Shown: positions 2,135 through 30,381, counted from the first letter of the stretch. The stretch is 64,000 nucleotides of DNA from a virus (IMGVR_UViG_3300045988_113120:24222-88221); one strand, 5' to 3'. Program-made: numbers and translations. The notes: generated by a model not told the origin, from the letters alone.

Positions 2135-5100
2135 TTAGGCGACAACCCCCTTCACTTTCTTAATATCTTCTAGCCATTGTTTATATGGTTTAATTTTCTT
2201 TGCGATAACCTTCTCGTCTGAATCTTTTCTGCATAACATCGCAATCTGATTTCCTTTGGCAATCATATCTTCATATTCTTTTAATTGCGAATGCCAGACG
2301 ATTGCCTCAGTCAATCCAAAACTAGAATATAAATTCACATACGCAAATGTCTTTTTATTTTTGTCTTTCTTTTTATCAACTTTAGCGATCACTGCAACCA
2401 CAGTGCAATCATCTCCATTTTCAACATCTTGAAATTGTTTTGACATATACTTGTATGCCTGATCAAATGGGTTATCGTTGATAAAGATTTGCAATGCTTC
2501 AAATTCCCAAAAATCTTCATTCTCAAGATATTTTTGATTCTGTGCGATAAATTTCTGAAATCGTTCTTTTTCCTTATCTTTGTACAATTCATACTTTTTA
2601 TCGTTATAAGCTTTCAATATTGCATCTTTGTCGTAATCATATTTCTTCTCACCTATACGGTAATCTTCAGCGTCAATATCCCATTTAATAAGTAATTGTT
2701 TGTAACTCGGTGCTTTTGCAACTGGCTTGAATGTTGTTGGCTGATACATAGATTTCAAATACTGAATTAAAGTTTTACGTTTATTCTTTGTTGGAATTGC
2801 ACCTGCTTTGATCAACTGAATAACCTGTGATTTACTTGGATTAATACGTTCGCAAAAGTTTTCAAATCCTATGAATTTACCATTTTTATCACGGTCTTCA
2901 AGAATTACCTTTGCAATTTTTTCTCCAATACCACTGATAGCCGATAATCCAAACAATATATACACATCGTCAATACTGAAATTCATCATTGATTTATTTA
3001 AGTTTGGTGGTAACACTTGAATCTTAAACGCCTTGGCATCAAGAATATATTTATTTACCATTCCTGCCTTATCTTTATTGCGATTCAATAATGCCTTAAA
3101 AAAACACAACGCATAATGTTTCTTTAAAAACGCTGTTTGTAAGCATAATACAGCGTATGAGTACGCATGACTTTTATTGAATAAGTATCCCCCTTTTTGA
3201 GATAACGTCTCGCTAATCTGTTTTGCAATTTCTTCGGGGTATCCATTCTCAATAATCTCGTAATAAAGTTTTTTAGATTCAGACTTCACAAGTTCAATAT
3301 TCTTTTTACCAATCGCTTTACGGAATAAGTCGGCTCCTCCATAACTTCGACCACCAAATTTACGAACAATATCAAGTAATTGCTCCTGATAAATCATACA
3401 TCCATACGTTTCCTTTAAGATTGGCTCCATATCTGGATGGATATATGTAATTTTCTCTGGGTGATGTTTGTACTCAATAAATTCTTCTAAGACATCCATT
3501 GCATCTGGTCTATACAGTGCTAATACAGCTGCCAACTCTTCCATGTTTGATACCTGTAACCTAACCAACAAATCCTTCATGCCAGCACTTTCAACTTGGA
3601 AAACACCATTCGTCATTGCACTACGCAATAATTCATATGATCCTTTATCCATTTCAAACTTTGGATTGTTAATATTTACATCAAACTCAGTTAACCCTGC
3701 GTCAATTTCAGCTTCTTTTACAGTGTTTAATGTGGCAACACCCAGAATATCAAATTTAATAATTCCAATTTCTTCAACGATACGTTTATCTACTTGAATA
3801 ACGTGCTCTCCGTCAGTTCCAAGCTTCATTGCCATATAATCGCTAATATCTGTATCTACAATTCCTACACCACCTGCATGAGAAGATACTGTTTTTACTC
3901 TGCCTGCAAGATGTGATGCAACATCAAAAAGTTCTTCATATCTTGGGTTCTCTGCTAAATCTCTGTTATTCCACAAAGATTCTTCAATTGTGTCATATAC
4001 GAATTTTTTACTTAATTTGTCCATCTCGTGATAATTGAACCCTAAGACCTTACCAACATCTTTGATCGCTACAATTGGAGTAATAAAACTGAAATTGATA
4101 ATCTGGCATACTCTGTTGTCGCCATACTTATCGATCAAATATTGGATAATCTCATCTCGTGTACCAACATCTGTATCTGTATCTGGCATTGAAATTCGCT
4201 CTGGATTCAAAAATCTTTCAAAAATTAGTCCATATTTGATAGGATCTAAGTCTGTAATTGTAATCGTGTAACACACTAAACTACCTGCACAACTACCTCG
4301 ACCAGCACCAATTGGAATACCATTTTCTCTTGCAAAATTGATAAAATCCCATACAATTAAGAAATACCCATCGAATCCCATTGAATGAATAATATCTAAT
4401 TCATAATCAATTCTTTCTTTTCTGAGTTTCTGTTCTTCTTCTGGTAATTTATCGAATCCTCGTTTTACCCACCCTGTATCAATCAGATACTTTAAATAAG
4501 AATAATTATCTTCAAACCCTTCTGGTAATGGAAAAGATGGTAACTGAGGTGCCTGAAATGGCATGTGGATTTCATCAATTAAATCTGCAATCCTATCAGT
4601 TTCTTCAAGTCCTTTAGTTACTGCGTCTTCTCCAATTTGACTATCCATAATTGCATGAATTTCATCATCAGATTGCAAATAACATCCTTCGTAAATTTCT
4701 GCTGCGGTTTCAGTATCGTGAGCAAGTTTTACATGCCAGTTCTGATAATATAAATCTTCTTTTCTAGCAGCGTGACTATCAGTTGTGATAATGTATGGTG
4801 TATTAGTGTCTACTGAAAGCTGTAAGATTTTCTGATTATATACCATTTGATCCTGATGTGAATGTGACTGCATTTCTAAATAAAAATGTGGAAAAATCTC
4901 TTTGTATTCACGAACATATTCAACACATTTCTGGTAATCTGGCTCTCTGGCAAGTTTAGATGCTAAACAAGCACTACTTACAATCAAATCCTTAGCATAT
5001 GGTTTCAATGCGTTCAGATCAATTCGTGGTTTGTAGTAAAATCCATGAAAATTTGAATCAGTTACCAATTGATTAATTGCTTTTCTACCATTCTCATTCT

Positions 5101-5379: not shown

Positions 5380-7128
5380 TCAATCCCAAATATCTTCGTC
5401 TAATTCTTCATCTGTTGTGATGCTCAGAACATTAATATCATCAACCGCAATTTGATATTGTCTAATTCCGTTAAAGATATTAGTCTGTGCAGTTCCTACT
5501 AATTCAAATGTAACTGTGCCTTCGTCAGAAAAATCGTTCATAATCCAATCATAAATCTTATTTTGTTCATCGCATCTAAACATCACGCATGGAATATCAT
5601 TAATCTTGAATTGCATTGTATCCATTTTCTTACCAACAACATTAATTTCTTCCTTATTTAATGTTATATTCTCGACAGCAATCATCGGATCATCAATGCC
5701 CTGCCCACGAATATCATCCAATTTAGACATTTCCTGTAGTAGTTCAAAATCTAATCTGCAAGCATCTACAATGAAATCAACTCTATAAGTTGCATCATAT
5801 TTAATATCTTTCAGCTTGTCGTTTAATTCTGTGATTGCTCCAGAGATATTATCTGTCGAACATCCAAATGCATTGGCGTGACCTTTTGCCCATAAAAATG
5901 AATTTGTTTCGGATATCACATCTTTCAAACTATCAATCGGGCTATGATCTACATTCCTTGCGCTACCACTCATTTCTACTAATCCTGTTTCTGGATTAAT
6001 ATGTTTTCGTAATAACAAACATGGTCTGTTCATATCTTCAGCAATCTTAATAGCAACCAATCCTGTCAAACTGCTATCTAATGTTTCTGTAACATCAAGA
6101 ATAGTAATCTTGCTATCTTTATCTTTTTCAGCCTCTTTCATAATGATTGGAACCATCTTTTTCTTTTGACGATCCTGTTTGCCTTTAGCATTTTTGCATA
6201 ATCGAGCAGCACGATCGTAAATATTCTCTTTGATTACTTCCGCAGGGTTGTTTTTTGTTGCTCTTTTCTTATAGTCAAATACCTCATAGTCTTCAATAAA
6301 TGCTCTAAAAACTAATTCTTTATCTTTCAAAGAACCAAATCGTACCATACCATTGATAATTGGAACGATATACCACTGAACATTATGAATATTAACAATA
6401 CTATGCATTGAATAATCTTGTGCATTGATCAGCGCTTTGAAGCATTCATTCTGAATATTCTGTATTCCTTTATTGACTAAACGACGTGTTTCAAAGGATC
6501 TCATATCCATCACATCACCAATATTGGCTAATGCACATAAATCTAAATAATCATCTGCATAATTAATCCATAATTCATCATCCATTGCCTGTAAAAATCT
6601 ATAAACAACGCCTGCCCCACATAAGTCTTTGTTCTTATAGCGTGGACTGCACTGGTTATTTACAATTACAACTTCCTCTGGCATTTTAATTTCAGATTCT
6701 TCTTTTTCATGGTGATCAAGAATTACAATCTGTACGCCACGATTTGTAAGTTCTGCACACTGTGTTACATCGTTGGTGCCTGCATCTGGGATTATTAAAA
6801 GTTTTACGTCTTCAGGTATAGTAATATCTTCACTTAATCCGTGAGCTTTTGCTTTTTTATGCAATAAGTAACAAATGTTACTCTTGCTGTCATAAAGTTC
6901 ATTATTAATACGATTTAAGTACATGTATGCCATTGAAGCTGAGCAAAATCCGTCTACGTCCTCGTCAATTAAAATACCGATTTTATGTCCATTTTCAAGT
7001 GCAAAAATCGTTGTATTTACTGCGTTTTTGATACCCTCTAAATCGGCATAATCTTGAATTACGCTATCATCGAGGTTCAAATACGTTTCATAATCATCAA
7101 TCCCTCTATTTCTTAAAATTTCTGGCAC
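5380..7128 (-). CDS. recJ: RecJ-like single-strand DNA exonuclease (DHH family)
   Basis: 582 aa with DHH-family motifs: DEDVDGFCS, IIPDAGTND and ILDHHE. RecJ-like length and its position among replication genes support the call. Confidence 0.65.
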   Translation of the reverse strand: MPEILRNRGIDDYETYLNLDDSVIQDYADLEGIKNAVNTTIFALENGHKIGILIDEDVDGFCSASMAYMYLNRINNELYDSKSNICYLLHKKAKAHGLSEDITIPEDVKLLIIPDAGTNDVTQCAELTNRGVQIVILDHHEKEESEIKMPEEVVIVNNQCSPRYKNKDLCGAGVVYRFLQAMDDELWINYADDYLDLCALANIGDVMDMRSFETRRLVNKGIQNIQNECFKALINAQDYSMHSIVNIHNVQWYIVPIINGMVRFGSLKDKELVFRAFIEDYEVFDYKKRATKNNPAEVIKENIYDRAARLCKNAKGKQDRQKKKMVPIIMKEAEKDKDSKITILDVTETLDSSLTGLVAIKIAEDMNRPCLLLRKHINPETGLVEMSGSARNVDHSPIDSLKDVISETNSFLWAKGHANAFGCSTDNISGAITELNDKLKDIKYDATYRVDFIVDACRLDFELLQEMSKLDDIRGQGIDDPMIAVENITLNKEEINVVGKKMDTMQFKINDIPCVMFRCDEQNKIYDWIMNDFSDEGTVTFELVGTAQTNIFNGIRQYQIAVDDINVLSITTDEELDEDIWD

Positions 7129-7195: not shown

Positions 7196-8224
7196 TTATT
7201 TAAGTGTATACAAATAGTTATTTAACAATAGTTCCCATTTTTTAGGGTCATCAGTAGGTGATTCTTTTTCATCAAGGATTCCTTCTTCTGAGTTATCCAT
7301 AATGTATGAAATCGGAACTCCATCAATAAAACGATCGCCAAACTTTTGAATCTCTTCTAATTCAACATCTTTGTCAAAAATAAATACTACTTCAACTCCG
7401 AGTCTTGTTAACATGTCAATTTGCTGTCTTGAAACTTGCTTGCCGCCAGTCGCCACAACATTTTGATATCCATATGACCATAGCTGCATGACAGCTTTTT
7501 CTGCTTCTGCAACATATACTCTCCCAGCCCTTTCTATATAAGGTAGAGTTTTATTCAATCCGTATAAGATTCTTTGTCTAGCGCATGGCTCAATATATAA
7601 ATATTTCAAATCATGTTTATCTAACTTTTTCTTGAACAATCGTCCTTTAACACCTACCAAATCACCAATTTCAGAAAAAATAGGTATTGTAATTCTGTTT
7701 GTATCTTCGTCATAGCCAATATTAAATTCCTTCTGCGTTAAATAACTAATATGATCATCGTAAAATAAATCGTTTACATAATCCTTATAATAAGAAAGAA
7801 TTCGTTTTGAAATTGGTTTGACGGGTTTATCTTCTTCGGTTTCTATATTTTCTTTCATATCATGAATCAATTGAGTGATCTGCAAACTTTCTGGCAGTTG
7901 CTCATTAAAATCATGATAATAATCTATGCCGATCAAATTGGCTAGATATTTTAAACCGTCTGGGAAAGACAGACTTTTTGTAAAGCATACCAAGTCAATT
8001 AAATCTGTCTGTCTTTCTTTTGCTGTCATTTTTCTTGTATAATTTGTGCAATTTAGGTTTTCGTTGTTATATGTAATAACTGCGGATTCATTATCCCCAT
8101 CTTTATTTGCACAGCTCCAATATCCAGACGAATGATATTTAATATGATGACAGCCTATATCTTTCAGAATATTTTCTACATAATTATTGTCGTATATATA
8201 TTCTTTTAGCTGTGCTACATCCAT
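7196..8224 (-). CDS. dnaG: DnaG-like DNA primase (zinc-binding N-terminus plus TOPRIM)
   Basis: 342 aa. The N-terminus is Cys/His-rich (CHHIKYHSSGYWSC) like a primase zinc-binding domain. A TOPRIM-like region (VYVAEAEKAVMQL...VVFIFDKD) follows. Confidence 0.6.
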   Translation of the reverse strand: MDVAQLKEYIYDNNYVENILKDIGCHHIKYHSSGYWSCANKDGDNESAVITYNNENLNCTNYTRKMTAKERQTDLIDLVCFTKSLSFPDGLKYLANLIGIDYYHDFNEQLPESLQITQLIHDMKENIETEEDKPVKPISKRILSYYKDYVNDLFYDDHISYLTQKEFNIGYDEDTNRITIPIFSEIGDLVGVKGRLFKKKLDKHDLKYLYIEPCARQRILYGLNKTLPYIERAGRVYVAEAEKAVMQLWSYGYQNVVATGGKQVSRQQIDMLTRLGVEVVFIFDKDVELEEIQKFGDRFIDGVPISYIMDNSEEGILDEKESPTDDPKKWELLLNNYLYTLK

Positions 8225-13162: not shown

Positions 13163-13702
13163 TTATAAGGATGGGATTAATTTATTTTTAATTTTTTTCA
13201 ATTGATATTGAATTGCTTGATATGTAACACCAAGGGTATTTCCTATTTCTTCGTTCGTATACCCTTTTGCCTTTAAATTAACAATTAACCTGTCCTTATT
13301 ATTTAGTATTCGCATTTGCTCATCAAAACACAAAAAGAAAATTAATTTTTTTTCATTATTTTTTTTATCAGCCAACAAAAAAGAATATTCTTTTTTGTCT
13401 TCATCTAAATCATTCATTAACTGATTGTACGATAATGTAAGTCGTTCATCTCTTTTATCTGCAAATCTCCATCGAGTATATGCTATAATTTCTTTTTGCA
13501 TACATTTATATGCATATGTAGAGAATGATTTAGCTTTGGATTCATCATAATCAATTGCTGCCTTACACAACCCAATGGCAGCGAATCCATAATAGTCATC
13601 AAAATCTTGTCTGCGGATACCGCATTTTGTCATAGCAGAGTAAATCAAATTATGATTTTGTTCTACCAAGTTTCTCTGTTCGTCATTTAATTTCAACGAC
13701 AT
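13163..13702 (-). CDS. Phage-encoded RNA polymerase sigma factor (sigma-70 regions 2 and 4)
   Basis: 179 aa. Region-2-like segment: YGFAAIGLCKAAIDYDESKAKSFSTYAYKCMQKEI. C-terminal region-4 HTH: KGYTNEEIGNTLGVTYQAIQYQLKKI. It is a paralog of 20030..20581. Confidence 0.65.
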   Translation of the reverse strand: MSLKLNDEQRNLVEQNHNLIYSAMTKCGIRRQDFDDYYGFAAIGLCKAAIDYDESKAKSFSTYAYKCMQKEIIAYTRWRFADKRDERLTLSYNQLMNDLDEDKKEYSFLLADKKNNEKKLIFFLCFDEQMRILNNKDRLIVNLKAKGYTNEEIGNTLGVTYQAIQYQLKKIKNKLIPSL

Positions 13703-22331: not shown

Positions 22332-22745
22332 TTACCCCTTTCGTTTATTCATTAAGTTAAGAAAATCTGCAACATCCTGCATAGCATGTACGCCAGAATA
22401 TACTTTAATACGATTTTCTTTCAATAAATTTTCGACTGCTTTTAAACTGTGGCTCATCTGCTTAGATTCTTTATTCTTTTGTTCCTGATAGAGATTAAGA
22501 AAGATCACTTTATCTGGTCGCTTATGAGAATCATCAACTACTTCTGCAATACTGTATACTCCTTTAATACCATTCGTAATGCCATACAGAACATAGTCAG
22601 ATTCTTCTCTTTCCTTGACTTCCCGCAGTCGGTCTTCTTCACTCCAATTTTTTACGATTGGATTATAATAATCACAATCCAACATCTTCTGTAGCTGGTC
22701 TCTCCACTTCCATCCAGAGCATGTTCCGCCTAAAAACACTTTCAT
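22332..22745 (-). CDS. Small nucleoside 2-deoxyribosyltransferase-like protein (tentative)
   Basis: 137 aa beginning VFLGGTCSGWKWRD with a NP...DYVLYGI pattern, reminiscent of the same fold as 17623..18105. Confidence 0.35.
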   Translation of the reverse strand: MKVFLGGTCSGWKWRDQLQKMLDCDYYNPIVKNWSEEDRLREVKEREESDYVLYGITNGIKGVYSIAEVVDDSHKRPDKVIFLNLYQEQKNKESKQMSHSLKAVENLLKENRIKVYSGVHAMQDVADFLNLMNKRKG

Positions 22746-23041
22746 TCTTCTTTCTCCTTCACCTTTGCTTTTGATTGATTTGGCTTTTTAACCGATTCAA
22801 CATATATTTCCCAGTCATCTGCATATACATCTTCCGCAAGAGGTATCCAAACTTCTGCGTTTTCTTTATCAAATAAAAAAATAATTGAATCTGGCTTATA
22901 TTCACCCATATCATTACACTCAAAATAAACATTAGTTAATTCTGACGAATAAATTTTCAAATACTTTTCCTTTCCCCAAATGCCTCTTCTTATAGTAGTT
23001 TTGTCTTTTTTTATTGCGATCATTGCTTTTATAAAATTCAA
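22742..23041 (-). CDS. Hypothetical protein
   Basis: 99 aa ORF with a 4-bp overlap. Confidence 0.4.
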   Translation of the reverse strand: MNFIKAMIAIKKDKTTIRRGIWGKEKYLKIYSSELTNVYFECNDMGEYKPDSIIFLFDKENAEVWIPLAEDVYADDWEIYVESVKKPNQSKAKVKEKEE

Positions 23042-23049
23042 TTAATTAT

Positions 23050-23361
23050 TCACCTCTTCCTTTTACTGTTAAAATCCCATCCTTGCTCAACCCAATCATT
23101 TGCGAAAATATCCTCTTGTGTAGGCAACCATCCCAATGTTATAACTCCATTTTGGTCTCTACATAAGAGTGGTTTCATTTTATATTTTTTATCAAATGGA
23201 ATAATCTCATTTAATTCTTCTTCGCACATCATAAACACATAATCATAAGTTGTTCGTGTCTTCTTCCACGAACTACGACGATACAATTGCCTTGGATTAA
23301 TTTCCATATTTTGCATCATCATTTCAAACGACATTCCTTGTTTCTTTTTTGCCATTGGCAT
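23050..23361 (-). CDS. Hypothetical protein
   Basis: 103 aa ORF. Confidence 0.4.
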   Translation of the reverse strand: MPMAKKKQGMSFEMMMQNMEINPRQLYRRSSWKKTRTTYDYVFMMCEEELNEIIPFDKKYKMKPLLCRDQNGVITLGWLPTQEDIFANDWVEQGWDFNSKRKR

Positions 23362-23666: not shown

Positions 23667-23833
23667 TATATCTCTCCTTTCTCAATTTCTTCTTTAATAA
23701 TTCTATATGCAAGAGCCTCATCAGACTCTTTGTCATTAATTCCATTTCTTTCTAACAGCCTGTCCAATTCACTGGGACTCAGCCGATCAAAGAATCGTTT
23801 TATCTCTTGTTTTCGTTGTTGTCTCGATTTCAT
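23667..23833 (-). CDS. Small charged helical protein (55 aa), translationally coupled to the downstream gene
   Basis: Minus-strand ORF MKSRQQRKQEIKRFFDRLSPSELDRLLERNGINDKESDEALAYRIIKEEIEKGEI. Its TAA stop overlaps the ATG of the next gene (taATG). It is below the 60-aa cutoff of the ORF track. Confidence 0.35.
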
Positions 23834-23847
23834 TTTTTTTGTTTAAT

Positions 23848-23950
23848 TTCCTTTAATTATGTTATTTTTTATAGTTACCAAACTGTTTCCAGAGTGGGAT
23901 GCGACAACGTAGTAGTTTTGTACCTATGTTATTTTTTATAGTTGTCAAAC
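23848..23950. CRISPR. Mini-array I: 2 x 36-bp repeats (first one degenerate) flanking one 31-bp spacer
   Basis: Repeat at 23915..23950: gttttgtacctatgttattttttatagttgtcaaac. It shares its first 15 and last 6 nt with the repeats of array II. A degenerate copy sits at 23848..23883. Spacer at 23884..23914: tgtttccagagtgggatgcgacaacgtagta. Confidence 0.4.
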
Positions 23951-23988
23951 CCAAAATAACATAAATCCGACAAAATAACATAGATTTT

Positions 23989-24019
23989 AGTGAGTGCCAT
24001 AATAAGCCTCACTTTTGGC
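23989..24019. ncRNA. Conserved hairpin element copy 1 (AGTGAG-loop-CTCACT + TTTTGGCG); candidate tracr/omegaRNA-like scaffold or terminator
   Basis: The 6-bp stem agtgag/ctcact is conserved in three copies, with variable loops of 9-13 nt, and is always followed by ttttggc. It is preceded by inverted partial copies of the repeat core (aaaataacata, twice). Confidence 0.35.
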
Positions 24020-24086
24020 GTACTCAATATTATTTGAGCAGAATATTTTATATATTCCCAAAACACACCAAATATTTTAAAATTTT

Positions 24087-24115
24087 TATTTTATTGAGTT
24101 TATAATGTGAAATCA
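24087..24115 (-). promoter_or_regulatory. Sigma-70-like promoter on the minus strand (TTGATT-17-TAAAAT) reading into the module-I leader and array I
   Basis: On the minus strand, TTGATT is followed by a 17-nt spacer (tcacattataaactcaa) and TAAAAT. Downstream lie the conserved box, the hairpin, the anti-repeat and array I. Confidence 0.4.
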
Positions 24116-24154
24116 AATAAGTACAAACGTTCTTTCTTGTACCTAATACTTCAC

Positions 24155-24256
24155 GTTTTGTACCTATGTAAAACTAAATAGGTATCAAACAGGCTTCTCA
24201 CTGCGAAATATTGATGATGAGTTTTGTACCTATGTAAAACTAAATAGGTATCAAAC
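24155..24256. CRISPR. Mini-array II: 2 identical 36-bp repeats flanking one 30-bp spacer
   Basis: Repeats at 24155..24190 and 24221..24256: gttttgtacctatgtaaaactaaataggtatcaaac, with the internal palindrome tacctat/ataggta. Spacer at 24191..24220: aggcttctcactgcgaaatattgatgatga. Degenerate repeat-like sequence flanks both sides. Confidence 0.5.
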
Positions 24257-24303
24257 CTCAAATTCTTTTGTCCAATTTTTGCTACCTAATTTACATAGAT
24301 TTT

Positions 24304-24333
24304 AGTGAGTATCTTACAATCTCACTTTTGGCA
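24304..24333. ncRNA. Conserved hairpin element copy 2
   Basis: agtgag-tatcttacaat-ctcact followed by tttggca. It is preceded by the segment tacctaatttacatag, which resembles or complements the array II repeat core. Confidence 0.35.
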
Positions 24334-24392
24334 TAGCCACAATTCAGTGACCAGAAATTTTAATTGGAATAAAATTTCCCAAAACATGCCAT

Positions 24393-24497
24393 GTATTTTA
24401 CTTGTGTAATTTAATATGGTTCTAAAACTGAGGCATAGTGGGTAAAAATATTGTAGTTTCAGTTTTGTACTTGTGTAATTTTTAATGGTTCTAAAAC
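24393..24497. CRISPR. Mini-array III: 2 near-identical 36-bp repeats flanking one 33-bp spacer
   Basis: Repeats: gtattttacttgtgtaatttaatatggttctaaaac (24393..24428) and gttttgtacttgtgtaatttttaatggttctaaaac (24462..24497). Spacer at 24429..24461: tgaggcatagtgggtaaaaatattgtagtttca. Both arrays II and III are followed by cctcaaat. Confidence 0.5.
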
Positions 24498-24558
24498 CTC
24501 AAATCTTAATTATGTATACAATACGGAACTTTATGTTCTACTTCATTACACAAATTTT

Positions 24559-24586
24559 AGTGAGTGACTTCTCCTCACTTTTGGCG
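24559..24586. ncRNA. Conserved hairpin element copy 3, adjacent to the 3' end of the nuclease gene
   Basis: agtgag-tgacttctc-ctcact followed by tttggcg. A second hairpin GGAGGGA-gtacggaac-TCCCTCC lies at 24608..24630, between the first hairpin and the nuclease stop codon. Confidence 0.35.
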
Positions 24587-24644
24587 CAACCACTTTATTT
24601 ATGGTTGAGGGAGTACGGAACTCCCTCCAAAACACACCAAATAT

Positions 24645-26276
24645 TTAAGCAGCTTTTTTATTATCATTATTTTTATCATCTTCTAATATAATTCCATAAT
24701 AATCTGCCGCAGCTTGAATCGTTTCTTTTGAACATTTAAATTTATCGTCTGTAAATTGTGTTGACATTGCGATGTTTCTAGCCGCATTATAGTCTGCGTT
24801 TACAGTATATAATTTGTGGCTTTTACAATTAGGATTCTTGCATTTAAATGTTGCCTGATCTTTTCTTTGTTCCTTTTCCCAGTGCCCACAAAAACTACAT
24901 ACTTGGGATGTAAATGACGGGTTGATTTTTCTAACTATGATTCCACATTGTTCTGCTTTATATGTAATATATTGTTGTAGTTTGTAAAAGCTCCAGTTTC
25001 TTAAAACAAATTCGCTTGAGTCATACCCTTTTAAATTTTCTATGTTGATATATTTTGCCCTATGTTTAATTGCGTAATCAACGACTGTTTTACTAACTCG
25101 ATGGCAATATGTATCAACAAAATTCTTTTCTTTTTCTTTTAACCTCTCTAAAGCTAATAATTTTCTTTTCCTTCCATGCCCACCTTTTGCTAATTTTAAA
25201 GCTTTTTGTAACTGCGTATATTCATTTTGAAATTTTGTTCTTCTTGTAACAAGATCATTTCCACTGCCGATATATTGTTTATCGTATTCGTTATTATTTA
25301 AAGCACACACAGCAGGAACAGCAAGTCCTAAATCAACTCCAACAACAGTATTTTCATCTAAATCCATTTTTTGTTTCTGCATTGTTATACTTAAATTCAT
25401 TTCAATTTTATCGTCATCAATGCCAAAGGTACTTCCACCGACTGAATACTCTCCTGTGAAAATCTTGATAATCGTTGAAATTAATTCTGTCTTATTCTTA
25501 TTTTGTTTATGCCCAAAGTTAATTTTGAATTTAGCAATCGTTGGGGAACCATTCTTGCCTAAACACACATATACTGGACATGTAGGTTTACCAATATTCT
25601 TTTTTAATTCTGTTATATCTTTGCAATCTGTAAAAATACCGAAATCCTTATTGGTTAAAGTAAAAGGAGAATCGAATTTGTAATTTGGAACAGAAACTTT
25701 TCCTTCCAATACTCCATCTTTAATTAAATTCTTAATCTTGCTGGTAAACGCTTGTTTGAAATCAGATCCATATCCTGCTAATGGATTATCAATGTCAACA
25801 TTTGTAAAGATACTACCATTCTTATTACCTGCTTTACGATAACACTCTTTTACATTATCACTCACCCATTTATTCTTTTCTGTAAGAGTCGGTAAATTTG
25901 CCACTTCTTCTTGTATCATTTTTGTATATATGTAAGATAGAATATAGTTCTTTCGTCTTGCTTCACTCTCCATTGCCTTTCTTACAATATCGTATGTATA
26001 ATCACTTGCTATTTTATGAGTGTATTCTTTAATTCCATTTTCTTTGAACTCTTCATATTGCTTTTCTAATTCTGCAAGCTGTTGTTTATATCCATCTTTC
26101 CGTTCTGGCTTACTTGTGTTTTTAATCTGTCTTTTTTTAGATTCAATTTTCTTCGGAAAATCCTTTTCTAAAAAAGCATTAACTCTTTTCTTCCATTTAT
26201 CATTGTCGCTTGCAACGGGAATCAAAGTAATCTTCCTTGCGATTGTCATTGTGTTGTCGTCTTGTTTCTTAGCCAT
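24645..26276 (-). CDS. TnpB/Cas12f-like RNA-guided endonuclease (RuvC split domain plus C-terminal zinc finger)
   Basis: 543 aa with RuvC-I (VVGVDLGLAVPAVCA), RuvC-II (YINIENL), a Zn finger (CSFCGHW...CKNPNCKSHKLY) and RuvC-III (NADYNAARNIA). The start overlaps the upstream gene's stop by 4 bp. The stop abuts the repeat/hairpin modules. Confidence 0.8.
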   Translation of the reverse strand: MAKKQDDNTMTIARKITLIPVASDNDKWKKRVNAFLEKDFPKKIESKKRQIKNTSKPERKDGYKQQLAELEKQYEEFKENGIKEYTHKIASDYTYDIVRKAMESEARRKNYILSYIYTKMIQEEVANLPTLTEKNKWVSDNVKECYRKAGNKNGSIFTNVDIDNPLAGYGSDFKQAFTSKIKNLIKDGVLEGKVSVPNYKFDSPFTLTNKDFGIFTDCKDITELKKNIGKPTCPVYVCLGKNGSPTIAKFKINFGHKQNKNKTELISTIIKIFTGEYSVGGSTFGIDDDKIEMNLSITMQKQKMDLDENTVVGVDLGLAVPAVCALNNNEYDKQYIGSGNDLVTRRTKFQNEYTQLQKALKLAKGGHGRKRKLLALERLKEKEKNFVDTYCHRVSKTVVDYAIKHRAKYINIENLKGYDSSEFVLRNWSFYKLQQYITYKAEQCGIIVRKINPSFTSQVCSFCGHWEKEQRKDQATFKCKNPNCKSHKLYTVNADYNAARNIAMSTQFTDDKFKCSKETIQAAADYYGIILEDDKNNDNKKAA

Positions 26277-26278
26277 AT

Positions 26279-26608
26279 CTACTTCACTCCTTTATCTTCC
26301 ATTTCTTCATATAACTCTCTGAATTTTCGAAAATCATCCACACTACCACCATTGTCTGGATGACTTTTCTTCATTGCATACTTCACTGCATCCTTAACAT
26401 CTGAACGAGTTTCTTCCTTATTATATGTACCATTTTCTTTGTCGTTAGTATCTGACATGAACGACATCTTATCTAAGATCAGATTTACATTTTCCTGCCT
26501 CATCCGATCCATCTTTCTTTCGTATCTCAGGAATACAATCACTCCAACGATACAAAACCCAATCGCATAGCCAATGGCAAACTTAATATTAGCTCCCATG
26601 TTAATCAC
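26279..26608 (-). CDS. Membrane-anchored J-domain (DnaJ-like) protein
   Basis: 109 aa. It has an N-terminal TM helix. The C-terminus has an HPD motif in J-domain context (AVKYAMKKSHPDNGGSVDDFRKFRELYEEM). Confidence 0.5.
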   Translation of the reverse strand: MINMGANIKFAIGYAIGFCIVGVIVFLRYERKMDRMRQENVNLILDKMSFMSDTNDKENGTYNKEETRSDVKDAVKYAMKKSHPDNGGSVDDFRKFRELYEEMEDKGVK

Positions 26609-30237: not shown

Positions 30238-30381
30238 GTGGAAACAACAGGAATCGAACCTGTGTCGGCAATTTATATGTGATGAAAATTAAATGTAAAT
30301 AAATAAAAATACTTATATGGAGGTAGAAAAATGAATGTTTATGTATTGCCTGCTCTACCAACTGAGCTATGTTTCCATGAC
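30238..30381 (-). tRNA. tRNA-like gene (possible anticodon CAT) interrupted by a ~67-74 nt AT-rich insertion in the anticodon loop
   Basis: On the minus strand: acceptor GGAAACA/TGTTTCC (7/7), U8, D-arm GCTC-AGTTGGTA-GAGC, anticodon stem GGCAA...TTGCC, T-arm ACAGG-TTCGATT-CCTGT. There are 74 nt between the anticodon-stem halves. The insert starts with TACATAA (loop-like with CAT) and is flanked by ACATAAA / ACATATAAA direct repeats. A TTGAAC...TATAAA promoter-like sequence lies upstream. Confidence 0.4.

Follow-up and report, generated by a model that had tools for sequence, protein, structure and literature searches.

The 64,000-nucleotide stretch of viral DNA IMGVR_UViG_3300045988_113120:24222-88221, hereafter called the window, carries between positions 23848 and 26276 a gene for a miniature Cas12f1-type effector of a CRISPR system. 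Downstream of this gene and on the same strand lie three cassettes, each of which, judging from its sequence, consists of a scaffold resembling a trans-activating CRISPR RNA (tracrRNA), a leader and a mini-array of repeats and spacers. The features of the locus, listed in the direction of the effector gene, are the following:

24645..26276, minus strand: cas12f1 (V-U3 branch) effector gene, 543 amino acids (Pfam, PDB and PADLOC matches)
24540..24641, minus strand: tracrRNA-like scaffold 1, anti-repeat UUGUGUAAU (cmsearch with model R1, 99.9 bits; covariation)
24498..24539, minus strand: leader 1, ending in ATTTGAG (24498-24504) directly before the first repeat (motif positions)
24393..24497, minus strand: mini-array 1, with repeat 24462-24497, 33-nt spacer 24429-24461 and degenerate last repeat 24393-24428
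24285..24393, minus strand: tracrRNA-like scaffold 2, anti-repeat CUAUGUAAAUUAGGUA (cmsearch, 94.9 bits)
24257..24284, minus strand: leader 2, ending in ATTTGAG (24257-24263) (motif positions)
24093..24256, minus strand: mini-array 2, with a leader-proximal part (repeat 24221-24256, 30-nt spacer 24191-24220, repeat 24155-24190) and a distal part (26-nt decayed spacer-like segment 24129-24154, degenerate last repeat 24093-24128)
23951..24072, minus strand: tracrRNA-like scaffold 3 (23970-24072) with a duplicated anti-repeat, CUAUGUUAUUUUG and UAUGUUAUUUUG (cmsearch, 101.2 bits)
23848..23950, minus strand: mini-array 3, with repeat 23915-23950, 31-nt spacer 23884-23914 and degenerate last repeat 23848-23883

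The effector protein matches the Pfam families Cas12f1-like_TNB (1.1e-17) and OrfB_IS605 (1.5e-9), the NCBIfam family guided_TnpB (153.9 bits, cutoff 100) and the PADLOC models Cas12u3 (2.4e-95) and Cas12f (4.4e-92). Among PDB chains, 8hr5_A is the best match (1.2e-57), followed by Cas12f 9nzr/9nzo (2.1e-57) and 7wju (7e-42); AsCas12f and Un1Cas12f chains are matched as well. The best-matching entry, a 497-amino-acid chain deposited as 'Transposase', is presumably CnCas12f1. The RuvC triad is intact (GVDLG, D315; NIENL, E413; NADYNAARNIA, D495) and aligns with the motifs of solved Cas12f chains, and the zinc-finger cysteines C460, C463, C479 and C484 are present. All seven residues are invariant in a 14-member alignment of the window protein and 13 others that are 46-70% identical. 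Moreover, dN/dS values of 0.07-0.10 at dS 0.36-0.49 against six IMG/VR relatives indicate purifying selection. Because of these family matches, the invariant residues and the low dN/dS, the protein is predicted to be a conserved, catalytically intact Cas12f1 of the V-U3 branch. V-U3 systems are typical of Clostridia and Bacilli and lack adaptation genes (PMC7229846).

The original prediction, made from the sequence alone, had described a complete split RuvC domain and a C-terminal zinc finger in this open reading frame (ORF). All these motifs were found, and the catalytic triad, in which it had foreseen a possible defect, is intact and conserved. Its label 'TnpB/Cas12f-like' has to be narrowed, as by PDB and PADLOC the protein is a CRISPR-type Cas12f1 (V-U3) and not a transposon TnpB. 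The overlap that it had described between the start of the gene and the upstream gene does not exist: the upstream stop codon TAG (26279-26281) ends 2 nt before the cas12f ATG (26276). The two genes are nevertheless tightly packed, with the AAGGAG ribosome-binding site of cas12f inside the 3′ end of the upstream gene. Two further identities were rejected, i.e., Cas12f2, because the NCBIfam score is just 109 bits against a cutoff of 450, and TIGR-Tas, because the protein scores solely as a RuvC/TNB-type Cas12f/TnpB, with no Tas-type family among the Pfam matches.

In general, a cassette is about 225-300 nt long and comprises a structured scaffold of ~100 nt, a leader of 20-45 nt and a mini-array of 36-nt repeats and 30-33-nt spacers, of which the last repeat is degenerate. 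The layout is read as putative tracrRNA, leader and mini-array because the leader parts the scaffold from the first repeat. A repeat finder returned five 36-nt repeat copies, spaced 66 and 69 nt start to start inside the modules, together with each conserved scaffold block in triplicate, at distances of 250-320 nt; the sixth repeat, at the end of module 3, was recovered by a fuzzy search. Tandem Repeats Finder reported no repeats at the locus, as the divergence between the units is too large. For the scaffold, Rfam contains no family, and it gave only sub-threshold CRISPR-DR22 matches on two repeats (on mini-array 1, minus strand, 20.8 bits). Elsewhere in the window the scaffold, repeat and leader motifs do not occur, except for one chance 10-mer. 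The earlier description of three diverged units on one strand, each ending in repeat, spacer and repeat, with the scaffold 5′ of the guide, thus agrees with the locus in outline. Its details differ: the units are not uniformly ~300 bp long, module 2 has the extra 26-nt segment and a third repeat, and the scaffold is not an omegaRNA but resembles a tracrRNA that pairs with the repeat and is separated from it by a leader.

Scaffold 1, which begins 4 nt past the cas12f stop codon, is built of a closing stem (UGGUGU/ACGCCA; GUUUUG lies in the junction), two hairpins and a further hairpin, GUGAG...CUCAC, followed by UAAAAU and the anti-repeat. The last repeat of module 1 is mutated at its 3′ end, with GTAAAATAC in place of GTACAAAAC, which creates a TAAAAT box resembling a -10 element 5 nt before the GG start of scaffold 2. 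Similar boxes lie 5 nt before the conserved GG of scaffold 1 (TTAAAT) and scaffold 3 (TAAAAT), and therefore each cassette may carry its own promoter. Module 3 ends in a repeat that reaches into the next gene's ribosome-binding site (the ATG is at 23833). In module 3 the anti-repeat is present as tandem copies, CTATGTTATTTTG and TATGTTATTTTG, 19 nt apart at 23952-23985, and this duplication also appears as repeat-finder block D7 and inverted repeats I3/I4.

The structure of the scaffold was derived from alignment A1, which holds 22 scaffolds, i.e., three paralogues from the window and from each of five IMG/VR relatives, together with scaffolds from more distant loci. RNAalifold predicts four helices (the closing stem, the two internal hairpins and the GUGAG...CUCAC hairpin), and the closing stem leaves GUUUUG unpaired. 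The consensus has 25 pairs, 14 of which show compensatory changes. Paired cells amount to 97.1%, compared to 34-47% when the partners are slid by 1-3 columns, and the covariation score was reached by none of 500 shuffles. The alignment additionally contains ~46 G-U cells, which on the opposite strand would give A-C mismatches.

Directly 3′ of the conserved UAAAAU, each scaffold has a segment that differs per cassette and is complementary to its own repeat: UUGUGUAAU with AUUACACAA in module 1, CUAUGUAAA with UUUACAUAG in module 2 and CUAUGUUAUUU with AAAUAACAUAG in module 3. The corresponding duplex energies are -11.8, -17.3 and -16.1 kcal/mol, whereas the anti-repeat of scaffold 2 reaches -3.7 and -9.9 kcal/mol with the other two repeats. 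In a 7 x 7 matrix of duplex energies, the cognate pair is the most stable one within its own locus for all seven cassettes. When cassette 2 is folded as a single RNA, anti-repeat and repeat pair in cis (z = -3.1). Besides this duplex, the six bases that close the repeat, CAAAAC, can pair with the unpaired GUUUUG by complementarity, and the two covary (GTTTTG/CAAAAC, GTTTCG/CGAAAC, GTTCTG/CAGAAC or CGGAAC) in 8/9 variant cassettes, where the partners were identified by direct reading as the terminal repeats are degenerate. An anti-repeat duplex combined with an AAAC:UUUG pseudoknot is reported for Cas12 tracrRNAs in a preprint (bioRxiv 10.1101/2025.01.20.633832). The covariance analysis across related phages that the original prediction had proposed hence supports structure, duplex and pseudoknot, and the scaffolds are best described as predicted tracrRNAs with an anti-repeat:repeat duplex and a GUUUUG:CAAAAC pseudoknot.

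The locus is not confined to the window. The identical protein occurs on at least 24 contigs from many samples, and one 125-kb contig carries both the identical protein and the identical array. In IMG/VR, 80 loci were found with Cas12f relatives that are 38-94% identical, mostly on viral contigs of 50-210 kb (with relatives of 140-170 kb among them), and synteny extends down to 70% protein identity. A blastn search of the locus against INPHARED gave no DNA match. A covariance model built from the scaffold alignment (R1) detected 179 scaffolds in the window and these 80 loci, every one of them (179/179) on the cas12f strand. At least one scaffold is present in 78/80 IMG/VR loci, and at least two in 65 of the 79 sources with matches, the window included; the number per source is one in 14, two in 37, three in 23, four in 3 and five in 2. 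Relative to cas12f, 85 scaffolds lie upstream and 91 downstream, and a detectable repeat pair follows 130/176. Hand inspection showed four cassettes in one relative with 70% identity (L009; L numbers denote loci of relatives and recovered contigs), and cassettes on both sides of the gene in L012 and L027-L029 (46-53% identity), in which the upstream scaffolds are shorter and present GUUUUG in a hairpin loop. From these counts and loci it follows that carrying multiple cognate tracrRNA-array cassettes is characteristic of this phage Cas12f clade.

While scaffolds and repeats are conserved, the spacers vary between close relatives. Relatives with 91-94% identical Cas12f and near-identical scaffolds have wholly different spacers, save for three near-clonal contigs. 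A conserved set of spacers, considered beforehand as an argument against guides, was thus not what was found. The number of spacers per cassette ranges from one to three among relatives, and the last repeat is degenerate in each cassette. No spacer matches the window or the relatives' flanks, which gives no sign of self-targeting. Among the PADLOC and Pfam matches listed (best 25 families) for the 87 ORFs of the window, cas1, cas2 and cas4 are absent. The locus can therefore be called free of an adaptation module, as was first proposed, for the matches listed in the 64-kb window and no further.

Several arrays deserve mention by themselves. Three independent assemblies with identical Cas12f (L111, L112 and L113) all stop inside the first module-2 repeat, at locus position 3050, which suggests that assemblies break at the array, via repeat collapse or spacer differences within the population. 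In L008 (IMGVR_UViG_3300045988_130367, 3680-3930), cas12f, module 1 and all scaffolds are lost at the locus. What is left is an orphan hybrid array, in which two module-2-type repeats are followed by the module-3 spacer of the window, with a single change, and then by module-3-type repeats with one further spacer; this points to deletion or recombination between cassettes. In module 1 of L006 (6810-6871), a 62-nt 'double spacer' is uninterrupted by any repeat. The spacers of its modules 2 (7080-7110) and 3 (7323-7353) agree with each other at 22/31 positions, and the sites that they match are homologous ones in different variants of the replicon described below, as an arms race with escape variants would produce.

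The target was found by a single metagenome scan with the module-2 spacer as query, after which all collected spacers were searched again against the recovered contigs. The module-2 spacer (24191-24220) matches eight metagenome contigs at 30/30 positions, outside any array context. Four of these contigs measure 12.9-13.1 kb and have identical ends of 55 or 79 nt, with the protospacer at different offsets; they are therefore circular. The contigs are 86-94% identical to each other, and their G+C content of 34% is similar to that of the phage. The following matches to this ~13-kb replicon were obtained:

Window, module-3 spacer: 30/31, mismatch at spacer position 27, in replicon contigs L019, L020 and L021
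L001 spacers: 30/30 and 28/30
L002 spacers: 32/32 and 29/30
L004/5/7 spacer: 31/31
L006 spacer: 29/31
L009 spacers: 29/30 and 27/30

Spacers against the replicon are also present in L037/38, L040 and L063 (Cas12f 61-67% identical to that of the window). Altogether, at least 11 confident spacers of relatives with 61-94% identical Cas12f match the replicon, out of about 17 matches in all, and at least 13 confident spacer-target pairs connect it to phage clades with 61-100% identical Cas12f. The matched sites are spread over the whole replicon and over both strands, and chance matches of such quality are not expected in ~100 kb of target sequence. Spacers of remoter relatives (Cas12f 46-52% identical) do not match it. 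Searches elsewhere yielded no further targets: 23 concatenated spacers gave no blastn match in INPHARED, exact-pattern scans of IMG/VR with six spacers returned the arrays themselves or nothing, and GTDB representative genomes matched neither the module-3 spacer nor the module-2 protospacer. Two of the three spacers quoted in the original prediction consequently match an outside target (30/30 and 30/31), and its idea of a system against competing mobile elements is borne out in that this target is a circular plasmid-like replicon of ~13 kb.

The replicon encodes ParA, an Arc-like protein, a DnaD-like/HTH_36/DUF6017 initiator, a serine recombinase, an HNH endonuclease, a radical-SAM protein, a SprT-like protein and a Rep_trans-like protein of 403 amino acids, in whose gene the module-2 protospacer lies. 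The family of the latter protein comprises just 12 clusters, always on contigs of at most 15 kb. Its AlphaFold model (pLDDT, the predicted local distance difference test score, 80) is weakly similar to RepD/RepDE rolling-circle initiators and to TBP-like folds (Foldseek probability 1.0, template modelling score 0.26-0.36). No structural phage genes are present on the replicon, and PADLOC found no recognisable defence system on it beyond a weak radical-SAM core match. Replicon proteins have only remote matches, to plasmids of Bacillota (Firmicutes).

Phage and replicon also share a 63-bp patch, 62/63 identical between window positions 13290-13352 and L019 positions 6471-6533; it occurs in L018 as well and is more diverged in L020. 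On the phage side it is contained in a sigma-factor-like ORF (13163-13702, minus strand), and on the replicon side it is part of a 43-amino-acid ORF (MYETKKLIFFLCLDEQMRILNNKDRKNFFELHVDFCESDEYTK) in an intergenic region of ~1 kb. The patch may represent the scar of a recombination, a decoy peptide or a regulatory RNA, and it suggests that phage and replicon have met in one cell.

The 5′ flanks of the protospacers of the window's clade read, in the sense of the CRISPR RNA (crRNA), TAAT/TAAG, TAAT, TTGC, TCGC, TCAT/TCGT, TTAA, TTAC, TTAC, TCAA/TCGA, TTAT and TTAT. All 11 have T at -4 and a purine at -2, and none has G at -3. The flanks in the sister clades are TTTA, TTTG, TTTA and TTCG, and no motif was found in the 3′ flank. 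Within a small sample of 11-17 protospacers, the flank fits the 5′ protospacer-adjacent motif (PAM) of type V systems and the crRNA polarity proposed here.

Taken together, the locus is very probably a phage-encoded type V-F (Cas12f1, V-U3) CRISPR-Cas system, in which one effector is served by three self-contained guide cassettes and used against the ~13-kb replicon. Each cassette would be transcribed on the cas12f strand from its -10-like box, and the transcript may be processed into a tracrRNA of ~100 nt and a short pre-crRNA of repeat, spacer and repeat. The tracrRNA would then join the 3′ half of its own repeat through an anti-repeat duplex of 9-19 bp and the pseudoknot, a pairing indicated by covariation, and so rebuild the guide scaffold known for Cas12f. 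By analogy with solved relatives, in which Cas12f acts as a dimer on one guide, the effector would recognise double-stranded DNA with a 5′ T-containing PAM (about T-H-R-N in the window's clade and TTTR-like in sister clades), and its intact RuvC site would, by homology, cut the target. The probable natural target is the ~13-kb circular plasmid-like replicon family to which the spacers match. As spacers turn over with no cas1 or cas2 detected in the window, acquisition is probably carried out by host machinery in trans. From the spacer matches, the system, which looks functional, appears to serve a conflict between phage and plasmid (or satellite).

Several observations weigh against this interpretation. 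The PAM derives from 11-17 protospacers and, taken alone, is also readable as the 3′ PAM of a guide from the opposite strand. The module-1 spacer (24429-24461) has no target in any collection searched, and the replicon was not found in IMG/VR, PLSDB, INPHARED or the GTDB representative genomes. In addition, a promoter and terminator scan performed no better than on shuffled sequence in this AT-rich DNA, and the absence of adaptation genes refers to 64 kb of a genome of roughly 125-170 kb.

The source of new spacers is hinted at by the leader. In modules 1 and 2, ATTTGAG|GTTT stands directly at the first repeat (24494-24504 and 24253-24263). When the motif was scored in a 28-nt window, as automatic repeat boundaries (130 arrays) are off by a few bases, TTTGAG was found at the junction of leader and first repeat in 63/99 unique cassettes and TTGAG in 71/99, compared to 0/99 and 2/99 at the second-repeat junction and a background rate of 4%. 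Module 3 of the window lacks the TTTGAG motif, yet its spacers still vary among relatives. In group-1 type II-A systems, ATTTGAG/GTTT together with 36-nt repeats serves as the conserved leader-anchoring junction, which spacer integration there requires (PMC5382924). With their ATTTGAG leader end, 36-nt repeats starting with GTTT and spacers of ~30 nt, the arrays have the features of type II-A arrays, which suggests that host type II-A adaptation proteins may load them. A counterpoint is that the protospacer motif is present on the leader-proximal side only, with no Cas9-type 3′ PAM. A comparable proposal, with type I-E host adaptation, has been made for the arrays of phage Cas12r (bioRxiv 10.64898/2026.04.20.719267). 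A more far-reaching version regards the cassettes as tandem plug-in units of promoter, tracrRNA, leader and mini-array, each acting like a natural single guide, in which the triplet of repeat, anti-repeat and pseudoknot co-evolves away from the neighbouring cassettes and which are used to destroy a resident, antagonistic ~13-kb plasmid or satellite. Host Cas1-Cas2-Csn2 would load them via the mimicked ATTTGAG/GTTT junction, resulting in a cross-type chimera with type II adaptation feeding a type V effector. This version, which cites the replicon variants with the 63-bp copy of the phage sigma-like gene inside the 43-amino-acid ORF, is rather unlikely as a whole.

Among explanations that depart from a cleaving Cas12f1, the system might bind and silence its targets without cleavage, like Cas12m or repressors of the TldR type. 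Binding alone is described for some miniature type V effectors of mobile elements (PMC11013384), and protospacers do lie in the replication and partition region of the replicon. However, D315, E413 and D495 are intact and invariant across the family and the closest solved relatives are active nucleases, so that silencing alone is improbable.

A second possibility, which we consider quite improbable, is that the mini-arrays hijack a host type II-A Cas9 and that the scaffolds are Cas9 tracrRNAs read from the plus strand. The junction, repeat length and 30-nt spacers are indeed a type II-A group-1 signature (PMC5382924), the repeats start with GTTTTAGA/GTTTGA and end in CAAAAC, and for guides from the plus strand the protospacer flank can be read as a 3′ PAM (N-Y-D-A). 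The RNA features nevertheless point the other way, as the G-U pairs, every covariance-model match and the orientation of the leader require transcription of the minus strand. Moreover, the scaffold has its anti-repeat at the 3′ end, and the duplex is formed with the repeat's 3′ half, an arrangement of type V systems that differs from that of type II, and a pseudoknot with the last six bases of the repeat is a Cas12 feature (bioRxiv 10.1101/2025.01.20.633832). The cassettes furthermore always accompany cas12f, PADLOC gave no Cas9 or Csn2 match in the window, and the protospacers have no 3′ flank motif.

Thirdly, an IS200/IS605-type TnpB with its omegaRNA could have inserted into the phage, the units being omegaRNA scaffolds duplicated by transposition with guides set by the transposon ends. 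TnpB genes are common in phages, and the OrfB_IS605 and guided_TnpB families do match the protein, but the best matches are to CRISPR-type Cas12f. The guides lie between repeats, differ among relatives at a constant syntenic position and have their matches in a foreign replicon instead of flanking DNA, while the scaffold begins after the stop codon, clear of the 3′ end of the gene, and is followed by a leader and a repeat before the guide. No transposase, Y1 included, is among the Pfam matches listed for the whole window, where end hairpins were not searched for explicitly, and the chance that this explanation holds is very slim. Lastly, a reading of the repeats as iterons of a replication origin or as other sites bound by proteins, with the conserved blocks as regulatory DNA, foreseen for iterons in the original prediction and prompted by AT-rich, partly palindromic and closely spaced repeats in a non-coding stretch, is practically negligible, as compensatory changes and strand-specific G-U pairs indicate RNA, 179/179 scaffolds share the cas12f strand, and the repeats pair with covarying anti-repeats and flank hypervariable spacers that match an external replicon with a conserved flank.

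Returning to the reading as a phage-borne Cas12f1 system, both the effector family and the involvement of phage CRISPR in conflicts between mobile elements (ICP1 against PLE, Cas12r, viral mini-arrays) are already known. The V-F1/V-U3 Cas12f1 systems of Clostridia and Bacilli (8hr5; AsCas12f 7wju/8dzj; Cas12f-MG119-28 9nzr) have the same small effector with tri-split RuvC and zinc ribbon, a tracrRNA between gene and array with an anti-repeat and a pseudoknot to the 3′ part of the repeat; their 5′ PAM is one that the protospacer flanks here would fit. As in V-U3 loci, adaptation genes are lacking, here in the sense that none was detected in the window. Whereas those systems have one tracrRNA and one array, the phage loci have 2-5 cassettes, each with a diverged cognate tracrRNA, a leader and an array of 1-3 spacers. 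They are moreover placed in the operon of a large phage, have a TTTGAG leader end and in relatives carry cassettes on both sides of the gene.

With the type I-F system of the Vibrio phage ICP1, the phage loci share the concentration of spacers on one family of small host-resident elements and the different spacers of related phages against the same element. The system of ICP1, however, is of class 1, possesses Cas1-Cas2/3 of its own as well as long arrays, and is directed against PLE, a chromosomal satellite with a demonstrated anti-phage role, whereas here a miniature class 2 effector with no adaptation genes detected faces a circular ParA/Rep replicon. The Cas12r-CRISPR system of Thermus Lalka phages is likewise a phage-borne miniature type V system with no adaptation genes and with diverse spacers directed at mobile elements, and its authors tentatively propose the host adaptation machinery as spacer supplier (bioRxiv 10.64898/2026.04.20.719267). 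It differs in having no tracrRNA, a single array, an A-rich PAM, another TnpB ancestry and integrative elements as targets. The phage 'Cas12 hacker' resembles the system in being a phage miniature Cas12 with the tracrRNA 5′ region in an AAAC:UUUG pseudoknot with the repeat end, but it belongs to another Cas12 family, is dependent on host thioredoxin and is described with a single guide architecture, and no natural target family was noted for it (bioRxiv 10.1101/2025.01.20.633832). Viral mini-arrays that use host Cas proteins also consist of one or two spacers and serve conflicts between elements, but they copy host repeats and have no effector of their own (PMC11656645), whereas here the phage supplies both tracrRNA and effector. 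Finally, the TnpB-omegaRNA pairs of IS200/IS605 have a homologous RuvC core and a structured 5′ scaffold with a 3′ guide; unlike in those pairs, no transposon ends were noted (no search aimed at end hairpins was made), the guide is variable and bounded by CRISPR repeats, and the scaffold forms an RNA segment of its own, which base-pairs to the repeat.

Full-text searches of open-access literature found no account of natural loci that contain more than one tracrRNA or tracrRNA-array units in tandem. Three aspects were found undescribed, i.e., the multiplication of cognate tracrRNA-leader-array cassettes around one cas12f, a II-A-like leader in a type V system and the ~13-kb replicon as target. 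The locus represents a natural multiplexing of a tracrRNA-dependent miniature nuclease by short cassettes with mutually diverged cognate tracrRNA/repeat pairs, and these compatible and incompatible scaffold-repeat sets would be directly usable for the engineering of orthogonal Cas12f guides. It is also a clear example, from metagenomes, of phage CRISPR being dedicated to a single small-replicon family, for which the prior examples are ICP1 against PLE (experimental) and the Cas12r preprint (targets inferred from spacer matches). The type II-A-like leader before type V arrays makes spacer acquisition by orphan viral arrays directly testable, and the natural protospacers yield a PAM prediction for a compact nuclease of 543 amino acids.

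The window itself is part of a large, gut-type phage with a genome of roughly 125-170 kb. It is AT-rich (~33% G+C), with a strongly negative GC skew and nearly all genes on the minus strand, and it also encodes a DNA polymerase III alpha-like protein, a RecJ-like nuclease, a DnaB-like helicase, NAD-salvage enzymes, Bro-N/Ant anti-repressors, two Tad2-like anti-Thoeris proteins and sigma-like factors. The polymerase is nearest to phages of Bacillota (Firmicutes) and to human faecal phage contigs (33-36% identity). The cas12f gene is placed in an operon of small early or counter-defence genes, and the genes around the CRISPR locus are probably counter-defence genes. The neighbours that could be placed are:

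23050-23361: Tad2-like (anti-Thoeris) ORF, near the CRISPR locus
22742-23041: probably a second Tad2-like ORF, adjacent to the former, assigned by synteny with L009
33905-35374: NAMPT-like NAD-salvage enzyme

Matches to NAD synthase and NAPRTase are present in the window as well, not mapped to ORFs, and nucleoside deoxyribosyltransferase-like proteins and a PemK-like toxin are among the neighbouring genes. At 30239-30376 (minus strand), Rfam calls a tRNA (46.4 bits) that spans 138 nt, where ARAGORN finds none. Its acceptor, D and T arms are recognisable and the anticodon region contains an insertion of ~67 nt, so that it may be an intron-containing or disrupted tRNA.

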